Shown piece by piece: positions 22,137-62,083 of a stretch of 64,000 nt of DNA. Under the pieces are notes generated by a model. The model saw only the letters and a program-made list of their open reading frames with translations, was not told where the DNA came from and did not search any database. Positions within the stretch are counted from its first letter, which is position 1. Each line of letters starts with the position of its first letter. This DNA is from a virus, in the IMG/VR virus record IMGVR_UViG_3300009709_000020, positions 1 through 64,000 of that record, one strand, 5' to 3'. The translations under genes and the position numbers were made by a program.

Positions 22137-22142
22137 GACGTA

Positions 22143-23763: not shown

Positions 23764-23764
23764 T

Positions 23765-23803: not shown

Positions 23804-23810
23804 TTAGGCT

Positions 23811-23873
23811 TTAATGATATTTTGCGATGAAACGTTCGTATGCTGAACCTTTATTTTTTGCTGGAGATGGCAT
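23811..23873 (-). pseudogene. 20-codon remnant resembling the N-terminus of an Hjc-type Holliday junction resolvase
   Basis: MPSPAKNKGSAYERFIAKYH*; KGxxxER motif; AAGGA SD and TAAATA upstream. Confidence 0.5.
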
Positions 23874-23912: not shown

Positions 23913-24158
23913 TTATTTAAATTTTAATGTCCATTCTAGTTCTAGATTTTTATTCTTGAATACTAGTTTAGGTGCTTTGCAGTTTGGATTAGGGAATTCA
24001 AATTTAACTTCTGTATAATGTTTGAAAATGTATGTCCATTCTTCAAGTGAGTCGAATTGATACCCATGAATCCAATATTCTTCTCTCCCACCCAAAGGAA
24101 TTGGAACTAATAATGAATGCAAAAGACCTTTTCCGTCTCTATATGATTCAGTAAGCAT
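23913..24158 (-). CDS. GPA-repeat family protein (degenerate repeat)
   Basis: LHSLLVP..EEYWIHGY; C-terminal EWTLKF. Confidence 0.75.
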   Translation of the reverse strand: MLTESYRDGKGLLHSLLVPIPLGGREEYWIHGYQFDSLEEWTYIFKHYTEVKFEFPNPNCKAPKLVFKNKNLELEWTLKFK

Positions 24159-24511
24159 TATGCGAACCTTAAATTATATTCAGTTTCTAGGTTTTGATCA
24201 AGAATTGTCATTTTTCCAGCCATACTAAAATCTAGATGTTCTATGTGTTTCACACACCATTCCCATTCATTTTTATTTGCAAAAAAAGGATATCCATGAA
24301 TCCAATATTCTTCTGTCCCGTTTTCCCATGTTAGTGCAGGACCCACTAAGGAATGAAACTTGTTATTATCATCTTTCATACTAGTATGATCTGTGTTCAG
24401 CACCGTACGTGCCATATTTTCTAAAATATTTTTTCCTTGTTTGGAAATACTTTTCGTAACCATTCTATCATACAGCGGCAATTTCTTTGGCATATACGAA
24501 ACCTTCATCAT
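24158..24511 (-). CDS. GPA-repeat family protein (start uncertain, possibly 24463)
   Basis: FHSLVGPA..EEYWIHGY; C-terminal EYNLRF. Confidence 0.7.
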   Translation of the reverse strand: MMKVSYMPKKLPLYDRMVTKSISKQGKNILENMARTVLNTDHTSMKDDNNKFHSLVGPALTWENGTEEYWIHGYPFFANKNEWEWCVKHIEHLDFSMAGKMTILDQNLETEYNLRFA

Positions 24512-24703: not shown

Positions 24704-25033
24704 TTAACCGAATCTAAGCATAAATTCTAATTCTGCGTTTGAATCAAGCCATAGCAATGTTGGTCTACCGAAACCCAATTGTTGAGGTCCAACAATGTCA
24801 AAAATTCGTAGTTTATCATTTTTGATTTGCTCCAAACAATATACCCATTGTTCTTCATTTGCAAATCGATAGCCGCGTAAATAAAATTTTTCTCTTCCGT
24901 CTTTTCTGATAATAGCAGGACCATCTTCTCGGTGGAATTTGTCATCGACTTTCCAAATTAAGTTTCCATCCAAAGTCTTTTTTCCTGATACGGTATATCG
25001 AGGATGTCTCGGATTATCAATAGCAATATCCAT
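24704..25033 (-). CDS. GPA-repeat family protein
   Basis: FHREDGPA..EKFYLRGY; C-terminal EFMLRF. Confidence 0.8.
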   Translation of the reverse strand: MDIAIDNPRHPRYTVSGKKTLDGNLIWKVDDKFHREDGPAIIRKDGREKFYLRGYRFANEEQWVYCLEQIKNDKLRIFDIVGPQQLGFGRPTLLWLDSNAELEFMLRFG

Positions 25034-45200: not shown

Positions 45201-48200
45201 TTCGGTATGGAAAATAGTAAAAACTGAATCAATTCGCTATGGCATGTTACCGAATTCAGCAAACAGGGCGTATGAAAGCACACTATTTTATGATGTAGAT
45301 AGATCAAATCTAGCATCAGATAATGACCTATTGTCAATGTCATTGATTGGTTACAGACCTAGGGATTACCTAGCCCTAGCTGATTTAACAACTGCTGCAC
45401 AACTCAATGTATACAAAAATTTTATCAAAAATAAAGGTACTCCCAATTCACTTGAAGTATTCAATACGGTCAATCTTGCCCAAGGAGAACTAAAATACGA
45501 CATACACGAAAATTGGGCAATAAAAACAAGCCAATTCGGTGATAAAAACTCAGGTAAATACATCGAAATGCAATTGGACGAGACACAAATTACTGGAAAT
45601 GCGTCTATTATTTCTGTAACAAATGGTGATGTTCCTGCAGGAACATCACAAATAGTACCAATTAACAAGCTGTATAATTACAATTTCAATGTACTATCAC
45701 CTAATATATTGCCATTAATGGAAAGTCAAGATCAACAAACTGCAGGATATGTTTCATTTGATGATGTAAATGTTTTTTCTTATAACTTTAGTGGATTAGA
45801 TAATGCCACTGATTCTACCGGAAACCTGTTGGATATTAATAATCTATACACGGGCGATTACATTTGGGTTGCAAATTTTAATGGTTCTTGGGGAGTGTAC
45901 TCTACTGTTATCCAAGGAACCATTACATCAATCACTTATGGTTCATCATACAGCACAGTAACTTTTTCTGATCCACATGAATTGTCAGTAAATGACCCAA
46001 TTGCAGTCATTCAAACAACCGATGACATTAATGGTTATTATCAGGTAAATACGGTTGTTGATAGCAAAACAATTACTATTCCTTATGCAAATGCATTAAA
46101 TTCAGGAAAAACAATTGAATTATTGGGATTTGTGCTAAAACTAGAAAACAAAAGATATTCTACTATTTCATCATTACCTGATATAGTTAATGTGTTTGAC
46201 AAAAATGATATTTATTGGATCGATGAAGATTCAAATGGCAGATGGGCTGTATATCAAAAAACGTCAAACAAATATTCTTTGGTGGATACTATTTCTACTT
46301 TAAGTGGCAATAACAAAGCAATTGTTTCTGAAGAATTAGGTATACTTATTACCAATGGAAATAATGTAGATCGTTATTCAATGGTTGGTACTGACTACCT
46401 GTTAACAGAAACCATTAATGGTGGCGCTGGCTTTGGATCATCTATTGCAACCTCAGATAGAACGATTTTCATTGCTAACTCAATTACTCAACAAATTAAT
46501 GTGTATTATAACAATGATACCGTGTTGTCATCAAATTCTGTTCTAATCAATACAATTGATTTAGCGTGCGACAAAATTTGGATTTCCGAAGATGGAAATT
46601 ATTTGTATGCATCTGACACCTCAACCAATTCTATCAATGTTATCAAAAAAATAAATTATGATATTTCTGCTGAATTCATGACTGCCGGAAGAGCATATAT
46701 TATCCAAACTCTCGGAGATTCAGATTGGGTTTCTGTAGGTGCAATTGAAAATTCACCGAATGTGGTTTTTGTTGCCTCAGGTCCAATAACACCGTCGACT
46801 GGCGTTGCCAAAGAAATATCGTATGAATTAGGCTTTACTATTTCAGGAAGTGAAACTGGATTTGGTACTGATTTTGCCTCGTCATCAACTGGTCATACTA
46901 TTGTTGTCGGATCACCTGACAAAATTATTAATTCATTGCAAGGAGTCGGCGGCGCCTACATTTATGTACAGGATGCACAAACCACAAAAACTTCATACCA
47001 AAACAATAACAATCCTGAACAAATCGGAATAGTATTCTCGAACAATGCCGTAATAGCTAATGCTTTTACAACTGTTACAGGTTCAAATATATATTTTAGC
47101 GTGCCTGCAGGATTAAAAATAAATGATCGTGTAGTTTTCGGTGGAGCATATATCGAAAATTATGGTTTCAACACCTCTGCGGTTTATTACGTGCAATCAG
47201 TATCTCCTACATATATCACGGTGAAATCTACAATTTCTTCAAATACTCCTGTGTTATTTGATTCAATAACTGGTATATCAGGTCAATGTTATATTCAAGA
47301 TAACACGGTTGATGTATTTGTTAATGGAACGGTTGTTACCACTGACAATTATTTTATCAAAAATTCAACTCTGACATATATTGGAAATTTTTCGGCAGGC
47401 GATATTATTGCAATTGTGTTCTCAAGCTACACATTGACACAAACCTTGGCTGGTAACAATACAACTAGAATTGATTCTCATTATGGATCATCTGTTACTA
47501 TTGATCGATCAGGAAATGAAATTTTTGTAAGTTCTCCGTATGAAGTTTCTACTTCTTCTGAAGGATCGGTTTATCGATACACAAATACTGCAGGCATTTC
47601 AGGAACTATCCTAGGATCCAATATTTGTAATGTAACGATTTCCGGTACTGTAACTATCAACGGTTATCCAATTGTAATTCCAATTGGTAATTCTGTTGTT
47701 GCTTCATCAGTAATCAATAATTCAAAAATACCAAACATAGTCGCGTCATCCGTTGACGGAAAAGTAATGATTTCTGTAATCAATGATAGTGAAACTATTG
47801 CACTTCAAAAAATTATTATTAATGCACCGGAATCATTGTTAACTCAACTTGGAATTTTGTTGAGAACAAACACACAAGTAATCAGGTCCTCAGATACCTA
47901 TGCAAAAACCGGATTCGGCTATTCATTGGCGATAACGGATAATGAATTATTCGTGTCAAGTATTAATTCTGTTTGTGAATCACAAGTTACTTTTGACACG
48001 GTGTATAAAAATGACCACACCAATACTGTGTTTGATAATCAAACTACGTTGTTCTATGATGTGTCACCTGCAACTGGATTGGTAGAAACTTTCAATCTTA
48101 TTGAGGGTCCTAATTATACAAGACAATACGTATACGGTCAGTCATTGTCAGTGGATGACGATGATATTAATTTTGGAAACAACCTTTCAATTGCCGGCAA

Positions 48201-51200
48201 TAATTTAGTTATTTCATCTGAAAATGCCACGTTTAACGTTAACGTTTTTTACGGAACAGAAGAGAATTGGTCTGTATTGCGACAAGAATCAGTAACGGTT
48301 GATATAAATTCAATCGACGGAATTAACTTGTACAGCAAGACAAATAGCGTTTCATTGGTAAATCTAGATTACATTGATCCGTTGAATGGAAAAATTTTAG
48401 GAGTCGCTAGAGAAAACATTGAATTCATGTCAACTGTTGATCCAGCAAAATATAATTCAGTTTCTTCAGGAATCACTTCAGTATGGGGTGCTGAATTCGT
48501 TGGTATGTGTTGGTTTGATATGTCAAATACAAAATGGATTGATTATAATCAAACAGATATAACATACAATATTAAATATTTCGGTAAGGTATTCCCAGGA
48601 TCAGATCCGGCGGTATATACCTGGATAAATAGTGCATATCCTCCGGCATTGTATTCCGGTACCGGAACAGTATATGATATTTCCAAATATTGCTCAAAGT
48701 CAACCTTAGACAATTCCGGGAATATTATTACTACATATTATTTCTGGGTTAGAAATACAAATACCATTACACAAAATCACACTTTAGCAGATACGGTTAT
48801 TGAAAATTACATTAAGAATCCTGCTGCATCTGGTGTTGCTTATTGTGCACTACTTACACCTTCATCATATGCATTGTATAATGCTGTTCCTTATATCAAT
48901 GGTACAGATACTATCATGCATTTAGGATTTTCTACCGGTTCTGATTTGGAAGGAAACATCCACACTGAGTATAGTTTAATTAGGGAAAATTATGAAGATG
49001 ATTTCTTGTACGGAATTCCTGAAAACACAAATACTAACTTATTGCCAAATCATGATCTATATCCAACGAGTGGAGAAAAAACTCCATATGGATTATATCT
49101 AAAATTACTTGATAGTTTTTCAGGATCCAATACATTTGGTAATCCGGTACCGGATCCATTCTTGCCAATGCCAATACAATCAGGTATTTCAATCCGACCA
49201 AGCCAAAGCATGTTTATGGATAGATTGTCTGCTCTAGAAAATTTTGTTACATACATTAACAATATATTGGCATCATATCCTATAACAGAAACTAGAACAA
49301 ATATAACTCTGTTACAAACAACTGGAACATATTTCAATACGAACGATTATTGGTCATATGAAAATTGGTGGGTAGAAGGTTTTGACAATAATACAAAACC
49401 AACCAGACAAGTTTCTGTATATGCTGATTTAAATATGCTTTCAGTAAATGCAGGAACATTGGTCAAAGTAAACGATAATGGATTTGGTAAATTTGAAATT
49501 TATCAGTATACGGGCGATGCTTGGAATAGAATAGGTTTAGAAAGCGGTACCATTCAACTTTCATCAAATCTATATGACTATATTGATTATAATATTGGGT
49601 TTGATGGAAGTTTCTTTGACACCGATAGTTTTGATTTCTGTCCTTCAGAAGAAACCAGATATGTTATCAGAGGGGTTTTTGAACAACTGTTAGTTGATGA
49701 TTTGTTGTCATATAGAAATCCTGCGTTAATCATGCTTTTTGAATATATCCAAAGTGAAGAACCTGCATACGGAACAAATATTGATTGGTTGAAGAAAACA
49801 TCACTTGTTGATATTTCTCATGACGTCAGGCAATTAACACAACAAAATGTATATAAATCAGATAACGAGACTTTCTTGGAAGGATTCATTAATGAAGTAA
49901 AACCATACAGAGTGCTAATCAAAGACTATTTGTTTACCTATTCAGGAATAGACGAAGCCAATATATATGCTACTGATTTTGATCTGCCTGCATCTATTAT
50001 GGGGTCTGAGTTTGTTACCCCGATGTTGACAGATACACCAAACGCATCAAATGAATTTTTGCCAAGTGACAATATCTGGAATCAAAATATTTACACTGAT
50101 TGGTTCAAATACAAAGGATTGTCATTAGCACAAGAAAACAATTACAGAATTGCTTACCTATCTTCGTATATAGATACCAGCACTAGAGAAATTGAGGTAG
50201 ATAATTCCTACGTATTCCCTGAATCAGGCACAATTACTATCAATGGTGAAATTTTAGGATATTCTGGTGTCAACAGAGCATTAAATTTGTTGACAGGAAT
50301 TATTCGCGGAGTTAATAATACTACTATTTCAACACATTTTCCTGGTGCAGAAATTTTCATGGATATTCCTGAAATTATTATGCTTAACAGTGGCAATAAT
50401 TATGCATCTACTCCAAATGTTACTGCATTTATTGACACTACCATTTATCCTGAACCAGAAATTGAGATGGAACTAGAAGCAATCATGAGTAACGGATCAG
50501 TGATCAGTATCAACGTGCTAAATCCTGGACAAGGATATTTTACTGTTCCTGAAATTATGATTGATCCGTCATATATAATATACTTTGATGATAATTCAAT
50601 TGATACAGCATTGTATACACTGAATTTATATGCACCTAATCTAACGACAGGTGACATAATTCAATTCTCCGGCAACAATTCGAGTGTCCCTGAAAATATT
50701 GTCAATGGCGCATGGTATTATGTAAATGTATTGGAAACCACACCCAATACAATTATTGCATTGTATAAAACATACAGGGATTCAATAAACGATAGAGCAA
50801 GAATAAAAATAGGAATTTCCGGAACAACCAACACTATGGCCCTGAACGCAGGTGCAAGAGCAGTTGCTGTTACTACTCCCAATCCAGTAAGAGACATCAA
50901 AATCAATTTGAAGTTTGATAGAACAACATACAGAAATAGAGTATTAGACTGGAATGAAGGTGTCTATTATGGTTCATATTTTGCCGGAACATTATATGAT
51001 AGCAGCCGCATTTCAAGTTCTTCTTACACATTGCAAAATGTGTATCCAAACATCGATACTATTCTTGCGAGTAATCACGGTGCTACGTTTGAAATAGTAA
51101 ATGTAGAGAATATTGAACAAACTGAATGGTCTACTATCGTCAGAACTGTTACTAGTGTCATCAACAATGTTATCACTATTACACCTCCATCTGTATTACA

Positions 51201-54200
51201 GAATTCGTTTGATAGTACAGTTGGATTTATGGTTAATTCTCCTATTAAATTCGGTTCAAATATTTCAGGATTAATCGAAAACCAAACATATTATGTTAAT
51301 TCCGTATTGAATACATATCAATTTACGGTATCAGACACTGTTTCAGGTAATGTATTATCAATTCCTGACCAAACCGTAAACTCTACTGCTATTCCTGGAA
51401 TAGTAGCTGACCAAGGCAGAATCACGGTCAACTATAAGGGCATTGTGACAATTACTGGTACAGAAAAAACCACAAATAAATTGTTCACTGAATTATCAGT
51501 CGCTGGCACCCAAGGAACAACAAACTTTTACAAGGGCGCACCCATCTTTTTCGTGGAAAACGTGTTTGGTAATATTGTGGAAAATCAAGTATATTATGTA
51601 AACACAATTGTTGATAATGAAACATTTACTGTAAATAAAGTCGATAATTTCATTACTACAGTGGTAACCGCAACAGATGGTTCAAACAATACTATTATAG
51701 TAGGTGATTCGACTGATTTTATCATTAACGATCCAATCATGATTGTAGGTGATCTAGCTGGAACAAATATAGTTTCAGGAAAACTGTACTATATTAACGA
51801 AATAGTTGACATAAATCATGTAAAAATTTCATTGTTAACCAACAATGAACCTGTTGTGCTGAACACAGTAGCAGATGTATTAGCTACTATGGATAATCAA
51901 AAAAATACTGTTCCATTAACAACAACCACAGGATCCATGATTGCTAACATGTCATTACCTGTAAGTCCCGGACAAATTGATGGACAGTTGTTCTCATTTT
52001 ACAAAACTTCCGGATTTAAATCAGGTTTAACATCTAGCACCTATTCAAACTTATTAACTGGTACCATTTCTGCTACAAATGGTTCCACTAATAGAATTTA
52101 TGTAGGAAGCATTGATACTACTACATATTATGAAAATATGCCGATAGAAGTATTTGCCACTGCAAATGGTCTATCAGTCAATACACCGTATTATATTACT
52201 AATATAGGTAAGGTATCATTGACAGTAACGTCAACTAATGGAACCATACTAACATGTAATTCCACCACCGAATTGTATTCAGGAATGAAAATAATCTTCT
52301 CTGGCAATTCATTAGGAACGTTAATTCTAGGTCAAGAATATTATGTGGTCGATGTATTAAGTCCAACAACATTTACGATTACAAACGTAAAAGGTTCTCC
52401 GGCAATCACATTGACTGCATCAACTGGTGCAATGCTTGGTGGAGGCGATAATTATTTCGAGTTGAGTCTATCTCCGGGTGGAAGCAATGTTGCATTAACT
52501 ACCGGTGTCACTTCAATTCAATACACACAATATATTACTTCATATCCGACAATTGATATTTCATACAGATTGGGAGGATATACTGCATTGATTGCCAATT
52601 CTGGATCCGGATTCTCGATCAACAATACCATTGTATTTTCAGGTTCAGCAGTAGGAGGAAGTTCACCTCAAAATGATATTACATTGAAGGTAAACACAGT
52701 AGATACCTTAGGACAAATTACAAGTGTTATTGTCACTGGAACTCCTCCTGCATTATCAGAAAACTTCTACTTAAAAGTTGTTTCTGATACGGAGTTAGAT
52801 ATTTTTTCTGACAAAGAATTAAAATCTTCTGTTCCTGCATCTAATTTGAACTACACTGGATATACCATGACTTCCGTATCCAGATTAACTGCTCCTTATT
52901 CGTTGACATTGGGATCGACCTCAGGCTTTTATGTTGGAGATTCGGTATATATCACTGGCGACAATACCGGAACATTCGTGGCAGGAAAAGAATATTTTGT
53001 GTATTCTATAACCTCTGACACAAACATGATTCTCTCTACCCTTCCCGGAGACAACACAACAATTGTTCCCGTAACAGACAATAATGTTACATTGACCATT
53101 GCAAAACCCGGTGATTTTATATTCCTGTCAGAACCATTCTATTTCACTCAATCAATCGTAAAATACAACAACAGACTATATGAGTGTGTTGTATCAAATC
53201 ATGATACCGAATTTGTGTTAGGCAAATGGAATGAAATTAATGCAAATGATATCAGATTAAATGCTTTGGATAGGACATTTGTTTATTATGATCCTACAGT
53301 AAATATGCCCGGAACTGATTTAACTCAATTGATTGATGGTCTAGTATATCCAAATCCAGTTTATATGGGTAACTATTTTGCACTTGATCAACAATATGAC
53401 GTTGATACTCATGTCGTAGACAATGATCCAAATGCAAGTTATACTATACAAGGAAATGATTTTTCATATAGCTATGGTCCAGAAGAACTTATGCCCGGAA
53501 AAATTCAAGACAACATTTCTGTTATTTCTTCTACATTACCGGGAACTAACTGGGACGTAGTTACATATGGGCATACGGGTTTTGACATCACGAATCTCGA
53601 AATAACTCCTTCAGGATCAACCCAAACTATTTTTAGTTTCAAAAACGAATCACAAACAGTATCCGGAATTACAGTGCAGGAAATTGATGGCACTACTGGA
53701 TTGGCTACAACTATGCCTATAAGTTCATATTCGATAGATTGGGTAAACAAAGAAATTATTTTAGCTACTCCTCTACCATATTATCCAATTATTAACAGGT
53801 TACAGATTGAATTGTTTGAAACTGGCAATGGATATCAATTAGCTAAATCTGACACTGATGATGCACCAATTATTACTAATACTAATACTGGTTTTAATGA
53901 AATCAATCTTGCGTGTAACTATAATGAAGCATTGATTTCAGGCAATGGCGTGCTAAAATATGATAGTACATTAATTACAGAAGCAGTGACAGAAACTGTT
54001 GCAGCGACCAATAGATTAATTTGCACTGATGTTTCATTGTTTACCATCGGCAAAGCCATTACATTTGAGGGAGGATTGTTCGGTGGAATAGTAGCAAATC
54101 AACCTTATTACGTAAAAACTATTAATCCTGCATCAAATACCATTACTATTTCAGATTCATTTGATTCCTCCACTGGTACGGTTGGTCCAGTACTGTCCGT

Positions 54201-56556
54201 AACAGATGATTCGGGATCAATGATTGCAATCATTCAAAATGGAAACGGTCTTGTATGGACAGATCCTTACGTATTGCACAATGGTACTAAATTAGTAGTA
54301 GGCGTAACAGATAAAATCTCTGCTATCAATAACAATGCATTGCAGACAATTTCCACTGAAAATATGGCGGTAGGCAATGAGATAACATTTGACACGTCTG
54401 CATTCGGGGGATTAATTCCTTTCAAGAATTACTACATAATTTCAATTAATAGTGCAACTTCATTTTCAATTTCCGAAACATTGGGTGGACCTACTGTAGT
54501 TTTAACAAATTCTTCAGGTGGTTCAACTTTTATCACAAATGATTATGCATTTGATGTGCAAACAGACGGAACAACTGCGAAAATTATTTTCGCAGAAACA
54601 GGTTTAACACAAGAAAATGATTATATATCATTTACTGTATTCGGTGAATCATTGCCCGATCAATATGGTTATTCTATTCCCGAAATTCAGAATTTTAAAG
54701 GAAATGGTTCAACTACGTACCAATTGACAAATTTCGTTGAATATGAAAACCCTGATCATGCAATAGTAGAGGTAAATGGGTTGAGAGTTATGCCAAATAC
54801 ATTCACAATCAATGGAGAATTGAACAATATTGTGTTTAATTCTGCAAAAACAAATGCAGATGAAATAAATGTTATGTCATTTAATGACACCAATAGGCAA
54901 TATCTAACAACATCAGATGTACTAACAGGAAAGTCAGTGGTTAATATTGTCAATGTTAACACATCTGTTTCAGATTATACTGTGCGTGGATGGGTAACCT
55001 CATCAAATAGTTCAAACAATCAATTAACTGCGGTATCTCCTGGAGGTACTACAGGAATGATTTCAGGACAATCTATTTCTTTCTACGGAACAAGCTTCGG
55101 TGGAGTTAATACAACGGATAAAGTTTATTACGTAGGAACAGTAGTATCTTCTAGTAACTTTACTATTGTCGATAACACCGGAACAGTGGTTACGTTGACC
55201 ACTGCTACTGGTTACATGGATTTTACTGTCGGAGGAATGGAAACCACTAGAATTACAACAGGAGCTCCTCACAATTTTACCACTAATGAGAAAGTAAGAA
55301 TGTATGGTATTGAAGGATCTATAGAACTAAACAATAACATATATTATGCAAGATATATTACGCCTACAGTATTTGATATATATACAGCACCATTTACACA
55401 AACATTGAGTGGTTCAAATTCTCCCGTAACTTCTGCAAGTTCATACACGGGTTCGGGCTATGCATCATCATTGGGACAATACAGAATTATTACAACTGAA
55501 TCCACTTCAATCAATTCTAACTTAATTGTATGTACTTCTGTTGACCGAATGATTCAAGGCAATCCAGTATATTTCTCTGCGGCCGGTTATCAGGATGGTG
55601 ACACAATAGTCTCTGGCATTGTGCAAGGACAAAAATATTATGTTGGTACAATTGATCCAAACGCCTTTGGGTTCAGCATCAGTACAACGCAATTTGGTCC
55701 TGATATTGTATTAACTAATTCAGTTCAGAACATGAATGTTACTTTATGGAATCAGCTAAATCCTGATAGAGTTTGGGTATATTTAAATGGTAAACGTGTT
55801 CCTTCATCAAAAATTACAATTTCTGATGTAAATGAAATTTCTATTAATAATGTTATTATTTCGTCAGACCAAATAATCATTACTAGCATGATTCCTACTG
55901 CTACTCCGCATGAACAAAAATTCATGAATATCATTGATTCGTCCGGTACGCAAACAATTTTTAACATGAATTCTCCATTCAGAACATGGTTGACACATGA
56001 TTTGTCAGCCACTGATACTGAATTATTTGTAAATGATGTAAGTAAGTTAACTGTAACAAAAATTCAAACAAATGTAGTAACTTTTGACACAGATGGCTAT
56101 TATGTGGGATTAAATGCTGATAAGAACAAGATTACATCAATTTCTGTTTTTAACGTGACCAGTCAGCAAACAATAGATACTGAACATTATGTATCACTTA
56201 TTTCAGGTATGTCGCCCGAAATAAGAATTGAACAAGGTGCGTGGATCAAACCCGGAGATACAGTAGAAATTACTATTTTGGAAGGAAATCTAATTTACGT
56301 TGCCGGAGAACAAATAATGTTTTCTGACATAAATGCTGAAACAAATTCAATTTCGGGCTTAGTAAGAGGTGTTAATGGAACCGGAACCGTTCCGATGATT
56401 AATGTGAACGAAACGGTTTATTGTCTTTTGGACGTAAATCAAATGAATGAAAATTACAATAATGTTATTTGGAATTCATATGAGTATAGTGCACTAGGTG
56501 ATCCACTACAGATTAGTAATACGGTTCCTGCGCAATTTCTGAACACCGAATTCTGA
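39286..56556 (+). CDS. Giant 5756-aa virion structural protein (baseplate wedge/appendage)
   Basis: Uninterrupted ORF after gp6; KNKGT and EVKPY wedge-like motifs; repeated YY(V/I) beta domains. Confidence 0.8.
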   Translation: MATIRTLSFLPEIYRTKKNAEILSGTLDNIVSEPTYSRIQGYIGSKFGNGIDASASYIPEVNKERTDYQLTPSVISLDDDTKNVSDFITYPGMVNELTNRGSITNNNASLFEGNTSSWDSFTDLDKLVNYHQYYWLPDGLPSVDITGNSATSVLNYQVTSDVSTYSIEEINATSTNFNPSITLVRGKTYTFAVNQNSQFWIQTEPGLLGKSTLNPAISTREIYGVTNNGSESGTITFTVPYENAQETFEFSTRYLVDITSDKLATSIIGNHLYDLVDPVTGNIIPGVNNIDGITDLDGKIIFFPDTELPSSAGSHTYTDGVVVYQMPYFSSTDFGYFYKIVYEEDPNNTGNPILTLQRLEAIPFNASIVAKYGLTNINVPYYQVSSLVFAKVPNLTARLTKLYYQDSEVSTKTGIFNIVDDTASVIIDINDILGKKTYTSPNNIVFTNGLKIKFDSYVHPSSYANIEYYVDGVGSSINLIPVLNLVCPESFSESEYNTFDNFPFDADTFDVSMYIPVEPDYITIARSAINENAWSRSNRWFHTDVISAAGTYNNSDYLTTYATSNAKAKRPIVEFYPNLKMFNSGTTSVPFVDFYDSTTTDAFSNVAGKLSYYADIDAYVPVSTIAGTVTSPVNSSSLVAGQAYQISSLGNTNWNLVVGTSNIIYYVGDTIVCKNAVSGTGTATFLATSTTATLNSNNATGTFSAGMFVATEDATLLPAGSYIFSATTDDSGITTLVIHWDDPQNILGGNAALIATNNSMDNYQLFSGARIIFSNDVDETVRNNIYTVNITQVEENEAPVIVLSLADQGEPILGTQTVILRGESFKGKSIYFDGISWNLAQQKITINQPPLFDVLDKNENSLSDASIYASSSFTGTKLFSYSIGTGAPDSVLGFPISYSSTNNIGDIAFTVDFNSDIFNYVNGANVVTENINTGYVYQYSTPSSFNRLLGWTASVAPVPQYQIFNFVYDSSTPVLKCDIEKSTNTIWPSIKVFYNNAYVNNDKYSVITDANSTEVTLITPPSDGTPVEVLLLSDQVSANGYYDIPTNLNNNPLNNSLEKVNLDEIRLQFNDIFINNGTITGSINGANSYRDSGNPIGYGTKLIQNQCPVVTPGLFLRDSSLNLQEALLFNSREYVKYKQLLTFTVQNSNYDVTYSPADILDDAIEQISLARTESNSFYWTDMLPSRVPYISKTYTFRNNTNNVALSLSKIYDFSVASYDSVLVYLIRVVNGKKNVIQLQKNVDYTVSSTATNVIITKQLLQNDIITVNEYNQTYASYVPHTPSKLGLYPLFVPEIILDNNLVTPTYFIKGHDGSYTKLYGSYDANTESLNDFRDIALFEFENRIYNNTKLSSTVPVIDLTEIKPGYFRDVPTFSDWLSVYTANFMNWAGQNRIDYTSHYFDKNNPFTFNYRNSSEKLTNTANNIGNWAGLYQYFYDTFTPHLTPWEMLGFSIKPSWWDARYGAAPYTSGNTILWNDLQLGFVWNDGDSYTKEKYARDRLAEIIPVDAAGNLLDPMTVLVGNYDANIFQADWIIGDTGPAELSYRRSSSYPFDIINAYSLLKPAKFYNLAIDLDVYQYNTEFGQWLTNGRNSLTLSDIKVYGSGIAKTSYLNWIVDYQKQHGIDASSYISNKLSNVDVRLTYRLAGFSDQTLLNFSLEKVSPNDNNTALKIPNENYNIILYNNQPHDQLTMSSVIIQKTGNNWAVYGNSQSSAYFVIDSPVINGKTIAVEYGSATVKVAQDYSQTKQYIPYGTIFYSTQEIAQFIKSYSSSLETKGVILDQTFNGSPINWDTMIQEFLYWSQTGWESGSAITLNPASTTLKITPPMGIVQPLTNSADNFILNQNLYPIKSKDLDVYRQDNSFTVSTLNPGDSMSYTQLDYASLEHGIVFDNTTMFNDVIYDLTTGLRQYRIMLSGRKTAEWNGTLTTNGFFLSQDNIVAWSTGTKYYAGNIVTYKNKYWAAQQTVEAASNFDTSVWKIVKTESIRYGMLPNSANRAYESTLFYDVDRSNLASDNDLLSMSLIGYRPRDYLALADLTTAAQLNVYKNFIKNKGTPNSLEVFNTVNLAQGELKYDIHENWAIKTSQFGDKNSGKYIEMQLDETQITGNASIISVTNGDVPAGTSQIVPINKLYNYNFNVLSPNILPLMESQDQQTAGYVSFDDVNVFSYNFSGLDNATDSTGNLLDINNLYTGDYIWVANFNGSWGVYSTVIQGTITSITYGSSYSTVTFSDPHELSVNDPIAVIQTTDDINGYYQVNTVVDSKTITIPYANALNSGKTIELLGFVLKLENKRYSTISSLPDIVNVFDKNDIYWIDEDSNGRWAVYQKTSNKYSLVDTISTLSGNNKAIVSEELGILITNGNNVDRYSMVGTDYLLTETINGGAGFGSSIATSDRTIFIANSITQQINVYYNNDTVLSSNSVLINTIDLACDKIWISEDGNYLYASDTSTNSINVIKKINYDISAEFMTAGRAYIIQTLGDSDWVSVGAIENSPNVVFVASGPITPSTGVAKEISYELGFTISGSETGFGTDFASSSTGHTIVVGSPDKIINSLQGVGGAYIYVQDAQTTKTSYQNNNNPEQIGIVFSNNAVIANAFTTVTGSNIYFSVPAGLKINDRVVFGGAYIENYGFNTSAVYYVQSVSPTYITVKSTISSNTPVLFDSITGISGQCYIQDNTVDVFVNGTVVTTDNYFIKNSTLTYIGNFSAGDIIAIVFSSYTLTQTLAGNNTTRIDSHYGSSVTIDRSGNEIFVSSPYEVSTSSEGSVYRYTNTAGISGTILGSNICNVTISGTVTINGYPIVIPIGNSVVASSVINNSKIPNIVASSVDGKVMISVINDSETIALQKIIINAPESLLTQLGILLRTNTQVIRSSDTYAKTGFGYSLAITDNELFVSSINSVCESQVTFDTVYKNDHTNTVFDNQTTLFYDVSPATGLVETFNLIEGPNYTRQYVYGQSLSVDDDDINFGNNLSIAGNNLVISSENATFNVNVFYGTEENWSVLRQESVTVDINSIDGINLYSKTNSVSLVNLDYIDPLNGKILGVARENIEFMSTVDPAKYNSVSSGITSVWGAEFVGMCWFDMSNTKWIDYNQTDITYNIKYFGKVFPGSDPAVYTWINSAYPPALYSGTGTVYDISKYCSKSTLDNSGNIITTYYFWVRNTNTITQNHTLADTVIENYIKNPAASGVAYCALLTPSSYALYNAVPYINGTDTIMHLGFSTGSDLEGNIHTEYSLIRENYEDDFLYGIPENTNTNLLPNHDLYPTSGEKTPYGLYLKLLDSFSGSNTFGNPVPDPFLPMPIQSGISIRPSQSMFMDRLSALENFVTYINNILASYPITETRTNITLLQTTGTYFNTNDYWSYENWWVEGFDNNTKPTRQVSVYADLNMLSVNAGTLVKVNDNGFGKFEIYQYTGDAWNRIGLESGTIQLSSNLYDYIDYNIGFDGSFFDTDSFDFCPSEETRYVIRGVFEQLLVDDLLSYRNPALIMLFEYIQSEEPAYGTNIDWLKKTSLVDISHDVRQLTQQNVYKSDNETFLEGFINEVKPYRVLIKDYLFTYSGIDEANIYATDFDLPASIMGSEFVTPMLTDTPNASNEFLPSDNIWNQNIYTDWFKYKGLSLAQENNYRIAYLSSYIDTSTREIEVDNSYVFPESGTITINGEILGYSGVNRALNLLTGIIRGVNNTTISTHFPGAEIFMDIPEIIMLNSGNNYASTPNVTAFIDTTIYPEPEIEMELEAIMSNGSVISINVLNPGQGYFTVPEIMIDPSYIIYFDDNSIDTALYTLNLYAPNLTTGDIIQFSGNNSSVPENIVNGAWYYVNVLETTPNTIIALYKTYRDSINDRARIKIGISGTTNTMALNAGARAVAVTTPNPVRDIKINLKFDRTTYRNRVLDWNEGVYYGSYFAGTLYDSSRISSSSYTLQNVYPNIDTILASNHGATFEIVNVENIEQTEWSTIVRTVTSVINNVITITPPSVLQNSFDSTVGFMVNSPIKFGSNISGLIENQTYYVNSVLNTYQFTVSDTVSGNVLSIPDQTVNSTAIPGIVADQGRITVNYKGIVTITGTEKTTNKLFTELSVAGTQGTTNFYKGAPIFFVENVFGNIVENQVYYVNTIVDNETFTVNKVDNFITTVVTATDGSNNTIIVGDSTDFIINDPIMIVGDLAGTNIVSGKLYYINEIVDINHVKISLLTNNEPVVLNTVADVLATMDNQKNTVPLTTTTGSMIANMSLPVSPGQIDGQLFSFYKTSGFKSGLTSSTYSNLLTGTISATNGSTNRIYVGSIDTTTYYENMPIEVFATANGLSVNTPYYITNIGKVSLTVTSTNGTILTCNSTTELYSGMKIIFSGNSLGTLILGQEYYVVDVLSPTTFTITNVKGSPAITLTASTGAMLGGGDNYFELSLSPGGSNVALTTGVTSIQYTQYITSYPTIDISYRLGGYTALIANSGSGFSINNTIVFSGSAVGGSSPQNDITLKVNTVDTLGQITSVIVTGTPPALSENFYLKVVSDTELDIFSDKELKSSVPASNLNYTGYTMTSVSRLTAPYSLTLGSTSGFYVGDSVYITGDNTGTFVAGKEYFVYSITSDTNMILSTLPGDNTTIVPVTDNNVTLTIAKPGDFIFLSEPFYFTQSIVKYNNRLYECVVSNHDTEFVLGKWNEINANDIRLNALDRTFVYYDPTVNMPGTDLTQLIDGLVYPNPVYMGNYFALDQQYDVDTHVVDNDPNASYTIQGNDFSYSYGPEELMPGKIQDNISVISSTLPGTNWDVVTYGHTGFDITNLEITPSGSTQTIFSFKNESQTVSGITVQEIDGTTGLATTMPISSYSIDWVNKEIILATPLPYYPIINRLQIELFETGNGYQLAKSDTDDAPIITNTNTGFNEINLACNYNEALISGNGVLKYDSTLITEAVTETVAATNRLICTDVSLFTIGKAITFEGGLFGGIVANQPYYVKTINPASNTITISDSFDSSTGTVGPVLSVTDDSGSMIAIIQNGNGLVWTDPYVLHNGTKLVVGVTDKISAINNNALQTISTENMAVGNEITFDTSAFGGLIPFKNYYIISINSATSFSISETLGGPTVVLTNSSGGSTFITNDYAFDVQTDGTTAKIIFAETGLTQENDYISFTVFGESLPDQYGYSIPEIQNFKGNGSTTYQLTNFVEYENPDHAIVEVNGLRVMPNTFTINGELNNIVFNSAKTNADEINVMSFNDTNRQYLTTSDVLTGKSVVNIVNVNTSVSDYTVRGWVTSSNSSNNQLTAVSPGGTTGMISGQSISFYGTSFGGVNTTDKVYYVGTVVSSSNFTIVDNTGTVVTLTTATGYMDFTVGGMETTRITTGAPHNFTTNEKVRMYGIEGSIELNNNIYYARYITPTVFDIYTAPFTQTLSGSNSPVTSASSYTGSGYASSLGQYRIITTESTSINSNLIVCTSVDRMIQGNPVYFSAAGYQDGDTIVSGIVQGQKYYVGTIDPNAFGFSISTTQFGPDIVLTNSVQNMNVTLWNQLNPDRVWVYLNGKRVPSSKITISDVNEISINNVIISSDQIIITSMIPTATPHEQKFMNIIDSSGTQTIFNMNSPFRTWLTHDLSATDTELFVNDVSKLTVTKIQTNVVTFDTDGYYVGLNADKNKITSISVFNVTSQQTIDTEHYVSLISGMSPEIRIEQGAWIKPGDTVEITILEGNLIYVAGEQIMFSDINAETNSISGLVRGVNGTGTVPMINVNETVYCLLDVNQMNENYNNVIWNSYEYSALGDPLQISNTVPAQFLNTEF

Positions 56557-57306: not shown

Positions 57307-58530
57307 ATGGCATATTCAATCGTTAGAAGTGATGGTCGAGTTTTAACAACTATTTCAGACGGTACCATCAACACCACTAGCACCTCTCTAGGCTTACCAG
57401 GAAAAAATTATTCCTCCTGGGGAGCAATATATGACACAAATTTTGTCAAGATTACAGAAAATTTTGCATCAAATACTCCGCCTGCTAATCCATTGCGTGG
57501 ACAACTTTGGTTTAACACTAATAATAATACATTGTGTGTTTGCCCATCTGATGGTCAAGCAAATGCAGCAGCATGGATTTCATTAACTTCAACTTCAAAT
57601 GTAGGAAGCACTACGTTTGGCAATGTAACAGCGATTGGTAATATCTCTGCTAATAATGTAAGTGCAAACAATTCAATGACAGCAAATACTATTTCATCAG
57701 GATATCTATCTGTAACTGCAAATACATCTCTAGCAAATGCAAATATTTCTTCTGCTACAATTGCAAGCATTGTTACTCCTAATATTAGTGCAGGAGGAAA
57801 TACTTCTGCTGGATCATTGACAGGTGTTTGGACTATTAATGGTTCAGTCGGCGGGGCAGGTGCATCATCATTGATACTAAACACTGGCGGCATTTCCATC
57901 AGTAATTCCTCTGGTGCAAATTTGTACGGAATTAAGTGTGACAACTATATGTATGCTAATGGTCAACCAGTACCATTAGGAATTACTTACTCTAATTCAA
58001 ATGTATCTGCATATTTGCCCACATATACCGGTAGAGTAGGTAATGTTACTGCAAATGCCTCCGCGCAATTTTTCGGTAATCTTCTTTCCACTGGTTCAAA
58101 TGTAAACATCGGTACAATAACAGGTAACTGGCAATTATCTGCTGGATCAACATTGCAAACAATTCATGCTGACTTAGCAGAACGTTATGAAGCAGATGAT
58201 GAATATCCAGTAGGCACTGTAGTCAAAGTCGGCGGAAACAACGAAATTACTGCGGCAACTAACAATGACACGGACAGTGTTTTGGGTGTAGTTTCTACTG
58301 GTTATGCATATCTAATGAATGCCGGCGCCGGGGATGACAAAACTCATCCTGCAATTGCTTTGGTAGGTAGAGTTCCTATTAGATGCGTAGGTCCGATATC
58401 GAAGGGTGATCAATTGATTCCTGTCGGTACAGGCTGCGCAAAAACATCGGCCGATGGCACAGGATTTGGTTGGGCCCTAGAAGATAATACGGATTCAGGT
58501 GAAAAATTAGTTATGTCAGTTATAAAATAA
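57307..58530 (+). CDS. Tail fiber-like protein with C-terminal chaperone/autocleavage-like domain
   Basis: ENFASNTPPANPLRGQLWF, N/S/G-rich shaft, ADLAERY...IALVGRVP. Confidence 0.7.
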   Translation: MAYSIVRSDGRVLTTISDGTINTTSTSLGLPGKNYSSWGAIYDTNFVKITENFASNTPPANPLRGQLWFNTNNNTLCVCPSDGQANAAAWISLTSTSNVGSTTFGNVTAIGNISANNVSANNSMTANTISSGYLSVTANTSLANANISSATIASIVTPNISAGGNTSAGSLTGVWTINGSVGGAGASSLILNTGGISISNSSGANLYGIKCDNYMYANGQPVPLGITYSNSNVSAYLPTYTGRVGNVTANASAQFFGNLLSTGSNVNIGTITGNWQLSAGSTLQTIHADLAERYEADDEYPVGTVVKVGGNNEITAATNNDTDSVLGVVSTGYAYLMNAGAGDDKTHPAIALVGRVPIRCVGPISKGDQLIPVGTGCAKTSADGTGFGWALEDNTDSGEKLVMSVIK

Positions 58531-58614
58531 CTAAATATTTGCATAACATCTGAGTTAAAAATTTTCTACAGCCTTTGAAAATTACCTTGACTCGACATAC
58601 CAGAGATGTTAATG

Positions 58615-58648
58615 ATCCTGCATTGCGTTTGTGATGCAGGATTTTTTA
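58615..58648 (+). terminator. Intrinsic terminator ending the tail operon
   Basis: ATCCTGCATTGC/GTGATGCAGGAT stem with two G-U pairs, followed by a T-run. Confidence 0.8.
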
Positions 58649-58661
58649 TTGGAGTAATTAA

Positions 58662-58967
58662 ATGGGTATGTTTAAAATGAGCACAGGTGATAGCTGGAAA
58701 CAAAATCCAACAAACCCTAACCCGAAATCATTTATAATCTTGAAAATGTATTGTTTTTCTGATATGTGGGTAGCTGAAATTAAATATCCGAATTGTACTA
58801 ATTTCGAAGGTATCAAGATTCTTGTTCTACGAGAAGATCCGTCAGGGATGTCTGAAATCGATCCTCATTTTTATGAGCAAGGGCCTATTGTAGCTCGATT
58901 TGAACCCAATGATAATGGTTGGAATCAAGCAATGTGGTTTGCCGAAACATTCTCCAAAAAGGATTGA
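58662..58967 (+). CDS. Hypothetical protein
   Basis: 101 aa, GGAG SD, promoter TTGACT-N17-TAATGA at 58587-58615. Confidence 0.75.
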   Translation: MGMFKMSTGDSWKQNPTNPNPKSFIILKMYCFSDMWVAEIKYPNCTNFEGIKILVLREDPSGMSEIDPHFYEQGPIVARFEPNDNGWNQAMWFAETFSKKD

Positions 58968-59002
58968 ATTGGCATTCAATGTGAAATAATTTTTACAGGC
59001 AT

Positions 59003-60295
59003 TCCGGATATTATATCCTCATGCGTATTATAGAAACTATTATTTCATTATAAACTATCTCTGCTTCATTTCATTTCGCAGAAGATCAAACTTGAGTTAT
59101 TTTTTACTCACTCTCGTTCGTAAAATAACACACAGTTTATATTTTTAATTAGTTTTTCTTTTTATATAGGACTTAATTATATATAGGCCAATAGATACTC
59201 TTGTAGAAGGAGAGCCATGGTAGTGCTTCTTTCAAAGCACTACCAATGGTTAGTTTGCTAAAAGTAAATTTGAAATGTACTTGTAGAAAGTGTCACTCTA
59301 GTCGCAAGTCCCCGATTCAACTATCCATTCCTGATGTTGAAACGATACCGGTCACGTTGTAAATTATTATGGGAAGTAGTGGGTGTTAACCATGACGCAT
59401 GTTCAGATTCGTCTTGCTGCATTTATGAATCTGACTCATTCCGGGATTGCTATACCAGTAGCCAAGAGCCCGGTCGGTATAATACCAGTCTATCTGTCAA
59501 ATTTTATATTGAATGTTCCATATGGCGTTCAAACTCTTTGGCATTACTCTAGCGGGACATATTTTTAAAAATAGTTTCCATAGCATGAAATCTTAGGCGA
59601 CCGTACGTCTTAAGCAGAGAGTCACCCGGGACAGATACCATGGACAATTAATGCCAAATACCCAAACCAAAAATAAATTTTAAAAAAATATTTTATTAAT
59701 GGTTTCGGGTTTTGGCATCACGCCGCACCAAAGATAGTCTTTCATACTCCTACAAGTACTAATGACCTCAGGTTTCTTCATCGATAGCACGTATACCTAA
59801 CATTCTAATATACTTCACTAACAGGCCTTTGTTTTGGTTTACTCAATAACTCATCATGTCATTGAACCTTCAACGTTCTTCTTCCCCCGGGCGTTATCAT
59901 ATCCTTTTAAGACTGAACACACAGATATGTTTACATTATTTTTTCGGGGCGTAATTCTCGTTGCTTGCATTTCTCGGGCTTCCTCCGAGTATTTTTGTTT
60001 GTAAATTGGTAAATATGGTCGTGTGAACATATTTGTGTTAATCCAATCCCAAGCTGTTCTGTTATGATTTTTTAAAGATGTCATCATAAAGAACGAAACC
60101 GACAGACTACTTCACATGGTTGACAGTACAATGAATTAATTCATTGTGCTGGTCTTGTCCCTAGAATCTGATCGCATTCATCAGTGGTGCAATTTCAAAG
60201 GGGATCGAGGTACCTCGATCAAGCGACGATGGCATTTTACCGCAATATGTTCAATATGAACTAGGAATCTGGATAGATGTATTGCGTCAAAATGT
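59003..60295 (-). ncRNA. Large structured non-coding element, copy 2 (unknown family)
   Basis: Paralog of 21085-22136 with the same block order and covarying stems; TTGATT-N17-TATAAT at 60330-60302. Confidence 0.75.
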
Positions 60296-60301
60296 AAATT
60301 A

Positions 60302-60330
60302 ATTATACATAATTAAAATATAAAAATCAA
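60302..60330 (-). promoter_or_regulatory. sigma70-type promoter heading non-coding copy 2
   Basis: -35 TTGATT 60325-60330, 17-nt spacer, -10 TATAAT 60302-60307. Confidence 0.65.
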
Positions 60331-60345
60331 CCATTAAATAAATTC

Positions 60346-61758
60346 ATGAACATAAAAGAAATTGCCAATTTTAAATTGTCAGATGCAGTAAAATTCCACA
60401 AAACCCTAAATCCTAAACTTTGGGAAGATAATCATTTGATTCCTGAGGTTAGAGAAAAATTATTGGTTATTGCAGAAGATTTCTTGGAAGAACTTGGTAT
60501 TCATCCTTTAAAGGTTGAAGATGTTCGCATCTATGGATCAAATACATCATACACTTATACCATTCATAGTGACATAGATTTACACATATTAGTTGATTAT
60601 AATGATTTGCCGGACAACGATGTATATAAAGAGTTGTTCAATGCAAAGAAAACAATTTACAATGAAACGCACAAAGTAAAAATTCGTGGAATTCCAGTAG
60701 AGTTATATGTACAAGATACAAATGAAGAGAATAAATCCATCGGAACATACAGTATATTACATGATCATTGGATCAAATATCCACAGAAACAAGATGTTAC
60801 TATTGATGAGGCATCTGTTAAAGCAAAATATGAAAAATTAGCAGATTATGCTGACCATGTGTTAAAAACCGAAAATCCATATAAGTTAGACACTTTTTTG
60901 AAATTGCTTAAGCGATATAGACAAGCGGGATTAGAAAAAGGGGGAGATTTGGGCCCCGAAAATCTTGTTTTTAAATTACTAAGAGCCAATAATTACATTG
61001 GAAAAATTAGAAAATTAAAACAAAAATTGCACGGACAACAATTATCACTTGAACATATAAATGAGGCATCCGGATATATACCTTCCGAAAAAGAAAAAAA
61101 TGATCCCCGTTTTAAAACTGGGTTGACAGTTGATGTTAAACCAGACTCAATTCAAAAAAATGCAAAAGCATTTGGCTCAAAAGTTTCTCGTCCTGGTATC
61201 CCGCCCCAAGCAAAAACAAACGGAAAAATTTCAGAAAATTTTGAATTTAAGTCATTCCAGATTCACAATGAAGATAACACTGATTCGGACATGGAAAATT
61301 TTCTAAAATTGTTGCAAAACAATAATACTCCTCATAAATTACTAGAGGATGTTATGGATGCAATGGATAAGAAATCTACCCGAATAAATGAACAAAATGA
61401 TCCTTCCGTAACCATTTCTCAACTAGAGCAATTTATCAATTCAAAAAAGATTGATTTGATAATAGGTAATAAATATATTCCGGTCATGCTTGCTCTTTTC
61501 AATGGCATATTAACTGTTTGTGACATACACAAAAATTCCTCTTTAATCACTCCTGCGGAATTTGGTGTACTGACAGAAATAAATGAATATGATGTAAATA
61601 TAGAATTTTCAAGTGGATCGTATCGCTATCCACTTGGGATTTATAAAATTGCAACTGTAACAGGAACAATTTTTGTTGAAACACCTGAAAATTATGAAAA
61701 ATTACGAACAGCCATCGCGTTAAAATTTGATAAAGTTTTGCCTCCCCTAAAAATTTGA
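60346..61758 (+). CDS. Pol-beta superfamily nucleotidyltransferase domain protein with C-terminal extensions
   Basis: GSN..Y.Y...SDIDLHI and PVELYVQD; TAAATA 5 nt upstream. Confidence 0.8.
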   Translation: MNIKEIANFKLSDAVKFHKTLNPKLWEDNHLIPEVREKLLVIAEDFLEELGIHPLKVEDVRIYGSNTSYTYTIHSDIDLHILVDYNDLPDNDVYKELFNAKKTIYNETHKVKIRGIPVELYVQDTNEENKSIGTYSILHDHWIKYPQKQDVTIDEASVKAKYEKLADYADHVLKTENPYKLDTFLKLLKRYRQAGLEKGGDLGPENLVFKLLRANNYIGKIRKLKQKLHGQQLSLEHINEASGYIPSEKEKNDPRFKTGLTVDVKPDSIQKNAKAFGSKVSRPGIPPQAKTNGKISENFEFKSFQIHNEDNTDSDMENFLKLLQNNNTPHKLLEDVMDAMDKKSTRINEQNDPSVTISQLEQFINSKKIDLIIGNKYIPVMLALFNGILTVCDIHKNSSLITPAEFGVLTEINEYDVNIEFSSGSYRYPLGIYKIATVTGTIFVETPENYEKLRTAIALKFDKVLPPLKI

Positions 61759-61804
61759 CATAATACCAAAAATCTATAAAAGAAGTTTTTTAAGGGAGAA
61801 ACCT

Positions 61805-62083
61805 ATGGAAATAACCGGTGCACTCCATGCAGCCGAAATTCAGGCACATAGATATCTAATGTTTTCCAAATTGCCTTATAAAATGCGAAATACCAACACA
61901 AAACTCAATTATTTCATGCGGTTACTTAGAGCAACGCTTGAGGAAATAAGTAAACAGGAAGTTGAAACAAAACGCGATAATCGACAGTTTCAACAAGACA
62001 AGTTGTTGGAAAACATACAACAATTCAAAGATGCATTGGATTTATTCGACAGAGAAATGACAATCGTACAACTCAAAATCTAA
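61805..62083 (+). CDS. Hypothetical protein
   Basis: 92 aa, GGGAG SD, TTGACA-N16-TAAAAG at 61755-61782. Confidence 0.7.
   Translation: MEITGALHAAEIQAHRYLMFSKLPYKMRNTNTKLNYFMRLLRATLEEISKQEVETKRDNRQFQQDKLLENIQQFKDALDLFDREMTIVQLKI

Follow-up and report, generated by a model that had tools for sequence, protein, structure and literature searches.

Copy 2 of a large structured RNA

The DNA analysed here (the window) comprises the initial 64 kb of a viral record of 102.8 kb, IMG/VR IMGVR_UViG_3300009709_000020, with a CheckV completeness of 30%, and it holds two copies of a large structured RNA element. Copy 2, our subject, spans the region 58982-60339 on the minus strand, in a gap (58968-60345) between two plus-strand genes, one for a 101-aa protein (p101; 58662-58967; phrog_13501) that converges on it and one for a pol-beta-type nucleotidyltransferase (NTase) of 470 aa (60346-61758; weak match to Pfam NTP_transf_2; phrog_36119). 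It is antisense to both, as an earlier note made from the sequence had stated. The gap contains no open reading frame (ORF) above 92 codons, and none above 109 codons with any one stop codon recoded; the ORFs within copy 2 (77, 56, 72 and 61 aa) matched no PHROG family. Judged by its genes, which include a 5,756-codon ORF and those for a late sigma factor, SbcD-/SbcC-like nucleases, portal, tape measure, baseplate hub and baseplate wedge, the window belongs to a T4-like jumbo phage.

Four collinear blocks in the same orientation (59208-59382, 59433-59478, 59659-59700 and 60158-60236) are common to the gap of copy 2 and to a second gap (21045-22311) holding copy 1, an enlarged, minus-strand copy that lies at the family's ancestral site beside the baseplate-hub gene (19230-20114) and is recognised by these blocks and by a match to the model R2 described below. 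The block 60158-60236 is 89% identical to copy 1, with 36 consecutive identical nt, and the spacer between the last two core blocks measures 680 nt in copy 2 versus 343 nt in copy 1. We defined the RNA family by two alignments, A9 and A10. A9 contains 27 compact relatives that are 52-93% identical; L108, which is identical to L107, was excluded from it, as was L104 (record G006), which had no pattern match and was recovered later by R2. Two covariance models were used: R1, for the 5' domain, was built only from copy 1, copy 2 and L009, a third enlarged copy found in another IMG/VR record of 60.4 kb (G001; the window's record is G000), and R2 describes the junction core. On the 102.8-kb record R2 gave exactly two matches, 21384-21649 and 59305-59481, both on the minus strand and each with 1 non-standard pair of 41; the training alignment of R2 included copy 1 and copy 2, so that their scores (114.3 bits for copy 2) are partly by construction. 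R1 provides a reciprocal check independent of that training, since it was built from the enlarged copies and recovers the compact relatives. The statement in the earlier note that copy 2 keeps every core block is upheld by the shared blocks, the R2 match and the 40 standard pairs out of 41.

All core helices are present in copy 2, which reads as follows from its 5' end. A leader (60221-60295) carries a hairpin, CGCAAUA...UAUUGCG, shared with L009 as CGUAAUA...UAUUACG, with both sides changed (by eye, alignment A11); compact relatives have no such leader. The hairpin P0 (60203-60220), changed on both sides between copies, and a conserved 5' domain named block E (60158-60203), with which R1 finds the relatives, together occupy 60158-60220. 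A 671-nt expansion closed by a stem (59487-60157) follows, in the place where relatives have a hairpin of 20-30 nt (A9 columns 232-260), and its predicted folding energy is -173.5 kcal/mol on the minus strand (z -5.6) versus -153.6 kcal/mol on the plus strand (z -3.5). The junction core (59305-59481), which aligns with the 27 relatives, is a multi-helix junction closed by ACCG/CGGU together with the next hairpin. The 3' strand of a double pseudoknot (59304-59313) pairs, by eye, through GGGG (59313-59310) with UCCC (59374-59371) and through CUUGC (59308-59304) with the loop GCAAG (59417-59413). Hairpin A (59215-59249) has a family-invariant stem sequence, GGUAGUGC / GCACUACC, in which 6 of 8 pairs never vary (helix 10). 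Finally, a 3' tail (58982-59214) contains two hairpins (59102-59125 and 59057-59086) that by eye resemble the tail hairpins of relatives. Homology to copy 1 extends to 58982 (21066-21255 versus 58982-59178), although weakly (E 0.014), and no minus-strand terminator was found for copy 2. On the plus strand, a terminator-like hairpin with a T-run lies within the expansion at 59973-59989, which could halt read-through from the structural genes ahead of the NTase promoter.

A duplicate of this kind might be decaying, or might have been produced by the assembly; copy 2 is specific to its lineage, and the assembly graph branches at short blocks common to copy 1 and L009, as such an explanation would have it. 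However, Logan contigs of the probable source run tile 57500-62000 with no differences, and they break only at those shared blocks, which measure merely 36-44 nt and leave loose ends that read, by eye, like copy 1 and L009. Further, 40 of the 41 core pairs are standard, both pseudoknots are kept with changed sequences, and the promoter is conserved with L009. We consider that on these comparisons the core of copy 2 is intact, and give decay or misassembly very little probability; the decayed duplicate that the earlier note had foreseen does not agree with the retained core pairs and pseudoknots.

A conserved fold with two pseudoknots

Folding of the 27 relatives with RNAalifold gave 75 pairs, 46 of them changed on both sides. 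Alignment cells at these positions pair in 97.5% of cases, versus 82.7% in shuffled alignments (0 of 500 reach the observed value) and 32-45% when partners are slid. A scan of all column pairs pointed to two more helices that cross the junction; as covariation in such an all-against-all scan is mostly relatedness noise, only runs of neighbouring pairs were used, and these were then tested separately. The two helices form a double pseudoknot, in which the loop of one junction arm and the internal loop of another both pair with one 12-nt downstream strand. Nine of its 12 pairs are changed on both sides, a result that 0 of 500 shuffles attain, and such changes fill 34 cells versus 9.7 in shuffles. 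In copy 2 the second pseudoknot reads CUUGC/GCAAG versus AAGAUA/UAUCUU in most relatives, so that by eye its sequence has changed and the pairing is kept; the first is kept in L009 and in copy 1 with yet other sequences. In the tail, covariation is seen in 7 of the 8 pairs of a hairpin that precedes a few U. The fold shown by this modelling for the family comprises a 5' domain, a multi-helix junction, two pseudoknots made from one 12-nt strand, a sequence-invariant hairpin and a hairpin tail.

The fold also indicates the strand. In the orientation of the PDDEXK nuclease gene that precedes the RNA in relatives, which is the minus strand of the window, the paired cells include 107 G-U versus 5 A-C, and the opposite strand has 40 G-U versus 25 A-C. 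The consensus fold has 75 pairs and -81.8 kcal/mol, against 62 pairs and -64.5 kcal/mol for the opposite strand; folding of the whole gap did not separate the strands (-332.0 versus -327.2 kcal/mol).

The sequence ACUAC stands at two fixed places in all 27 relatives (A9 columns 390 and 535) and in copies 1 and 2. In copy 2 these boxes are at 59376-59380 and approximately 59240-59244 (minus strand), one being the 3' strand of the invariant hairpin A and the other lying in the junction. Pairing of the 5' strand GGUAGUG with either box is conceivable, and would allow a conformational switch or two sites for one binder. We set aside co-variation of the twin boxes as a line of evidence because ACUAC never varies, and nothing can be concluded from it. 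Helix 1 of the RNAalifold model (A9 columns 162-165 with 463-466) was also rejected, as it has no both-sided change, and was replaced by the second pseudoknot and a local helix closing the 5' domain. The latter changes from CUCC/GGAG to CUCU/AGAG in L114 and L117, seen by eye only, where columns are misaligned.

A predicted promoter ahead of copy 2

Upstream of copy 2, on the minus strand, lies a sigma-70-like promoter (60302-60330) made of TTGATT (60330-60325), a 17-nt spacer and TATAAT (60307-60302), which matches the consensus at 10 of 12 positions and predicts an RNA start near 60295. By eye, equivalent sites are present in L009 (TTGCAA-17-TACAAT, at the aligned place) and in copy 1 (TTGCAT-17-TATAAT, at a similar distance from the 5' domain). 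The promoter is supported because this site is conserved in L009 and copy 1, and not because such sites are enriched. Copy 1 is also preceded by a strong terminator (22239-22213) that shields it from upstream transcription. Copy 2 would thus be a sigma-70 transcription unit of its own, probably with an early-type promoter.

Back to back with it, 5 nt from the -35 hexamer and 5 nt before the NTase ATG (60346), the plus strand carries TAAATA (60335-60340), which from the T4 consensus we take to be a late promoter. Both hexamers named in the earlier note, the -35 at 60325-60330 and this one, are present where it had placed them.

The compact family has a fixed site

Among cultured phages, one structural protein has its closest counterparts, at 40-52% identity, in Sinorhizobium phage Phosso, Agrobacterium phage Atu_ph07 and the RaK2 group. 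Uncultured relatives are abundant: 8,000 proteins were listed for that one query, the best 120 being approximately 75% identical. From 592 related loci we fetched 80 around homologues of a 203-aa protein (p203) that is encoded 1.7 kb upstream of copy 2. Also, we scanned IMG/VR with a pattern for the compact RNA, which yielded at least 119 stretches, 80 of which were listed as loci; some are the same records as in the p203-based set. Protein counts for the scan loci, which are 1.1-14 kb long, consider only protein matches up to 4 kb from the RNA.

In relatives the RNA is compact, present once and placed immediately after a PDDEXK nuclease gene, in the same orientation, starting no more than tens of bases from the stop codon of that gene. 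A core of approximately 355-370 nt is followed by a tail with two hairpins. In one sub-clade a motif, ACAGAACCC, recurs between this stop codon and the first hairpin (L096, L097, L099, L102, where it occurs twice, and L119). Run over whole records, R1 matched 9 of 30 and 5 of 48. All matches but one lie 34-38 kb from the 203-aa gene, the same distance as copy 1 in the window, the exception being a second, chance-level match in G006 (E 0.45). The site equivalent to that of copy 1 is reached by 29 of the 80 p203 records, 15 of which had no R1 match; all 15 show a PDDEXK_15 gene converging on the baseplate-hub gene across ~750 nt (1.3 kb in L115), together with the anchor motifs of the element. 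With the last of the 29, a complete genome with terminal repeats, confirmed by R2, the element is at the fixed site in 29 of 29. Among the 80 listed loci of the scan, the PDDEXK gene is directly upstream in 67, the other 13 having at most 571 nt of upstream flank; the hub gene is downstream in 74, and of the remaining six, five have less than 450 nt of flank and one a known insertion. In L115 (G015, 754-2076), an insertion of some 600 nt, with an ORF on the opposite strand, separates the RNA tail from the hub gene.

The RNA is single-copy in the five near-complete relative genomes (5/5), and two matches are found in the 102.8-kb record studied here. Copy 2 is away from the usual PDDEXK_15/baseplate-hub site, sitting between the 101-aa gene and the NTase gene. 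No DNA resembling the element was found within 10 kb of the p203 gene at any of the 80 loci, and neither the 101-aa gene, the NTase, a 92-aa gene nor an ATPase gene was found within 10 kb of a p203 homologue in the 80 relatives, from which we take the neighbourhood of copy 2 to be special to the phage of the window. R2 gave nothing at E up to 1 in four cultured phage records (Atu_ph07, Phosso, RaK2 and Ecwhy_1), a set in which the cultured phages offered no positive control, and blastn of both gaps against GenBank phages gave no match.

One further role can be considered. Folded transcripts such as ColE1 RNA II and the T4 oriF transcript prime DNA synthesis as persistent hybrids, and the RNA could likewise belong to an RNA-primed replication origin, its additional copies being additional origins. 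At the site, recombination/replication genes meet late baseplate genes, a border resembling that of T4 oriF, and several copies would suit several origins. Yet no test made here favours an origin, the cumulative GC skew does not turn at either copy, and what is conserved is an RNA fold (G-U versus A-C) and not a DNA unwinding element; an origin is accordingly improbable.

Enlarged copies and their history

The expansion is 671 nt in copy 2, ~340 nt in copy 1 and ~300 nt in L009, as opposed to the 20-30-nt hairpin of the relatives. The earlier note had credited copies 1 and 2 with different peripheries, which is correct for size and sequence; the two expansions nevertheless share one long AT-rich hairpin (21863-21905 and 59659-59700, 84% identical), so part of the expansion is older than the duplication. 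The copies are homologous from the promoter onwards, up to a point 15-22 nt short of the next gene, and the duplicated unit would therefore be promoter plus RNA. Of the two copies in the window, copy 2 is the one that L009 resembles more closely. A tree of the junction region places copy 1, copy 2 and L009 in one clade (support 95/94), with copy 2 sister to L009 (99/98). Pattern scans for further enlarged copies yielded only L009 as a real relative, six other loci having no extended similarity; a metagenome scan returned L009's own contig and three loci without similarity.

The three enlarged copies have three different neighbourhoods, and displacement is limited to copy 2 and L009. A GIY-YIG gene does lie upstream of copy 1, as claimed previously, but the two are not adjacent: between the SegE-type gene (22687-23763) and copy 1 stand a 99-codon ORF and the intrinsic terminator at 22239-22213. 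The SegE-type homing-endonuclease gene and the 99-codon ORF (22687-23873) occupy the site that in relatives holds the PDDEXK_15 nuclease gene, of which a remnant of 22 N-terminal residues with a stop is seen at 23808-23873. A SegE-like gene lies between gp46 and the PDDEXK gene in 2 of the 80 listed loci, and the gp46-PDDEXK region looks like a homing hot spot.

The moss-metagenome run also contains DNA of the L009 phage, with a depth similar to that of the window. The two records, G000 and G001, have G+C contents of 0.355 and 0.359, and the last 29 nt of G000 are identical to G001 3890-3918. Among 75 ORFs they have no single-copy gene in common, only members of multi-copy families. G000 and G001 may be two pieces of one genome, which would then have three copies of the RNA.

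Two displaced copies in unrelated neighbourhoods, and a homing-endonuclease gene beside copy 1, would fit a self-mobile RNA element, intron-like or retroelement-like, that inserts at new sites. Against this, all other records have the fixed site, no gene is interrupted and no flanking repeats were seen, there is no match to group I/II introns or to other Rfam families at E up to 10, and no reverse transcriptase or endonuclease family match lies inside the element. We regard self-mobility as very improbable. Nor is mobility a general property of the RNA, as had been proposed, given the fixed site in 29 of 29 records and in 67 of the 80 listed loci and the single copy in 5 of 5 genomes.

The same comparisons bear on a purely local function, in which the RNA would be a cis-acting 3' element of the gp47-gp46-PDDEXK operon: a stabiliser, a processing site, or an insulator against early antisense transcription into the late baseplate genes, with copy 2 likewise standing before converging late structural genes. 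Wherever the flank is long enough to tell, the RNA of relatives immediately follows PDDEXK in the same orientation and is convergent with the hub gene; copy 2 likewise runs towards plus-strand genes, and the tail hairpin with its few U, covarying in 7 of 8 pairs, would fit a 3' element. On the other hand, a doubly knotted core of 360 nt with invariant boxes far exceeds the needs of a terminator or stabiliser, a terminator separates copy 1, which has its own promoter-like site, from the upstream operon, and the genes that follow copy 1 and L009 are on the same strand and not converging. A cis-acting 3' element is in our judgement unlikely.

The neighbouring enzymes

Adjacency had led to the proposal that one of the neighbouring enzymes is the partner of the RNA, which might be, for example, a tailing substrate or ribonucleoprotein subunit of the NTase, or an RNA bound by the GIY-YIG nuclease. 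Promoters back to back with the NTase gene, and a copy 1 that lies ~0.4 kb downstream of the SegE-like gene, speak for such a partnership. All five near-complete relatives (5/5), however, encode an NTase homologue, with 51-56% identity across the N-terminal half, and its gene lies 74-200 kb from the single RNA copy. An NTase gene is near the RNA in 0 of the 80 listed loci and a SegE-like gene in 2. The same NTase family also occurs in unrelated phages (cyanophages, Lak phages and Maribacter phages), and the SegE-type gene is a lineage-specific insertion that has replaced the PDDEXK gene here. Synteny thus largely refutes both partnerships, which we hold to be highly improbable. A consistent neighbourhood, for which the earlier note had suggested looking, does exist in the family, and its members are the PDDEXK and hub genes rather than a GIY-YIG or NTase gene.

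In the three relatives examined (3/3), the next gene upstream of the NTase gene is 14-55 nt away, leaving no gap that could hold the RNA, which places copy 2 where gene order differs from that of the relatives; one relative has the order NTase, small ORF, ATPase as in the window. A search for loci by the NTase alone found no relatives. The NTase-domain proteins of relatives measure 304, 687 and 736 aa (L247-L249, in G005, G006 and G002), against 470 aa here, and their C-terminal parts appear to have been swapped.

Comparison with known RNAs

An Rfam scan of the whole window at the gathering score gave no match, and at E up to 10 the two gaps and five relatives gave only chance-level matches to miRNA, sRNA and snoRNA families. 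ARAGORN predicted no genes, and there was no match to RNase P, tmRNA, tRNA or group I/II introns. Our literature searches brought up no description of this RNA, fragments of which may stand in the supplements to PMC10690425 and PMC2864571. The first of these papers, which draws on the same data source, reports 8,495 structured RNA candidates of 29-151 nt mined from IMG/VR, and single hairpins of this RNA could be among them. The second describes the Polynucleobacter-1 motif (RF01718), a freshwater-associated structured RNA; in our scan none of 8 related records exceeded its 37-bit cut-off, one chance-level match was found elsewhere, and it was absent from the Rfam scans of the copies.

The most similar known RNAs are GOLLD (RF01998) and ROOL (RF03087), which likewise combine large size with an elaborate fold, are often carried by phages, and lack both a partner protein encoded nearby and an assigned job. 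Both have been reported to form RNA-only multimers by cryo-EM (10.1101/2024.12.08.627333). The present RNA differs from them in its fold and in its host range, which consists of uncultured T4-like jumbo phages, and has no sequence or structure match to them at the gathering score or at E up to 10. With the compact, doubly knotted RNA of jumbo phages, copy 2 shares the junction core, both pseudoknots, the invariant hairpin and the tail. It differs from the compact form by its two copies per record, by the expansion (340-680 nt in the two copies), by a sigma-70-like promoter of its own and by its place away from the nuclease-hub site.

A probable free-standing RNA

The explanation we prefer, with a probability of roughly 0.6, is that copy 2 (~60295 to ~59000, minus strand) is the intact paralogue of a large non-coding RNA that no catalogue lists, from a clade of uncultured T4-like jumbo phages, most likely a trans-acting RNA enzyme, scaffold or decoy for a protein encoded elsewhere. 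As suggested by the tree and by synteny, in the lineage of the window the RNA would have gained an expansion of 340-680 nt and a sigma-70-type promoter, and the whole unit of promoter plus RNA would then have been copied to at least one new site, beside the NTase gene, where gene order differs. Persistence of the fold far from its customary neighbours leads us to propose that the RNA works alone as a folded molecule, transcribed from a promoter of its own that is probably early. What is new here, namely duplication, displacement, expansion and an own promoter, favours a free-standing, trans-acting RNA. The earlier view that copy 2 is not the leader of one particular gene, and that action in trans is to be favoured, is supported: copy 2 lies antisense to both neighbouring genes and shows a promoter-like site.

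Several points weigh against this explanation. No biochemical activity or partner can be named for the RNA. The second pseudoknot could not be drawn in copy 1, the 3' end of copy 2 is not defined, and the long branches of the three enlarged copies make their union in the tree uncertain and provisional. Promoter-like sites occur at chance frequency in this AT-rich DNA (9 found, 8.3 expected from shuffles), and no RNA run was listed as containing the stretch, the only run listed being its probable source DNA, a moss metagenome. Also, the compact RNA begins near the PDDEXK stop codon, on the same strand, with no promoter recognised there, and in relatives it may be a 3'-UTR element of the PDDEXK gene.

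A more specific proposal, to which we give only a modest chance, is that the RNA is a free-standing catalytic or self-assembling jumbo-phage RNA, a new class beside GOLLD and ROOL. It would have been amplified to two copies (three if L009 is of the same genome), each with a large expansion domain behind an early promoter of host type; its periphery and copy number would be evolving as in a trans-acting RNA machine, and dosage would matter early in infection.

Large RNAs with complex conserved folds are rare, and most of those known are central machines (ribosomes, RNase P, self-splicing introns). The present family is kept in every examined member of an abundant clade of giant environmental phages and yet is uncatalogued. 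Copy 2 offers a natural experiment that the single-copy relatives cannot supply, in which the RNA has moved, has its own promoter, has been enlarged and duplicated, and still keeps its fold. Preservation of the fold after displacement argues both against a purely local role in cis and against the proposed enzyme partners. The comparison further separates the parts that seem essential (core, pseudoknots and invariant hairpin) from those that tolerate hundreds of extra bases, which can guide the constructs for tests of structure and activity.

Other features of the region

A multi-copy family of proteins of ~100-120 aa, in which 'W(Y/F)xxGKRHRxxGPA'-like units are repeated, has members at several places around the RNA copies (window 20344-20697, 20706-21044, 24158-24511 and 24704-25033; G000 89912-90127 and 99788-100111), and is also found beside the element of L009; it has no Pfam or PHROG match. 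Inside the structural gene block, a single plus-strand ORF of 5,756 codons occupies 39286-56556. Phosso has a comparable giant virion protein, encoded beside its homologue of the 203-aa gene.

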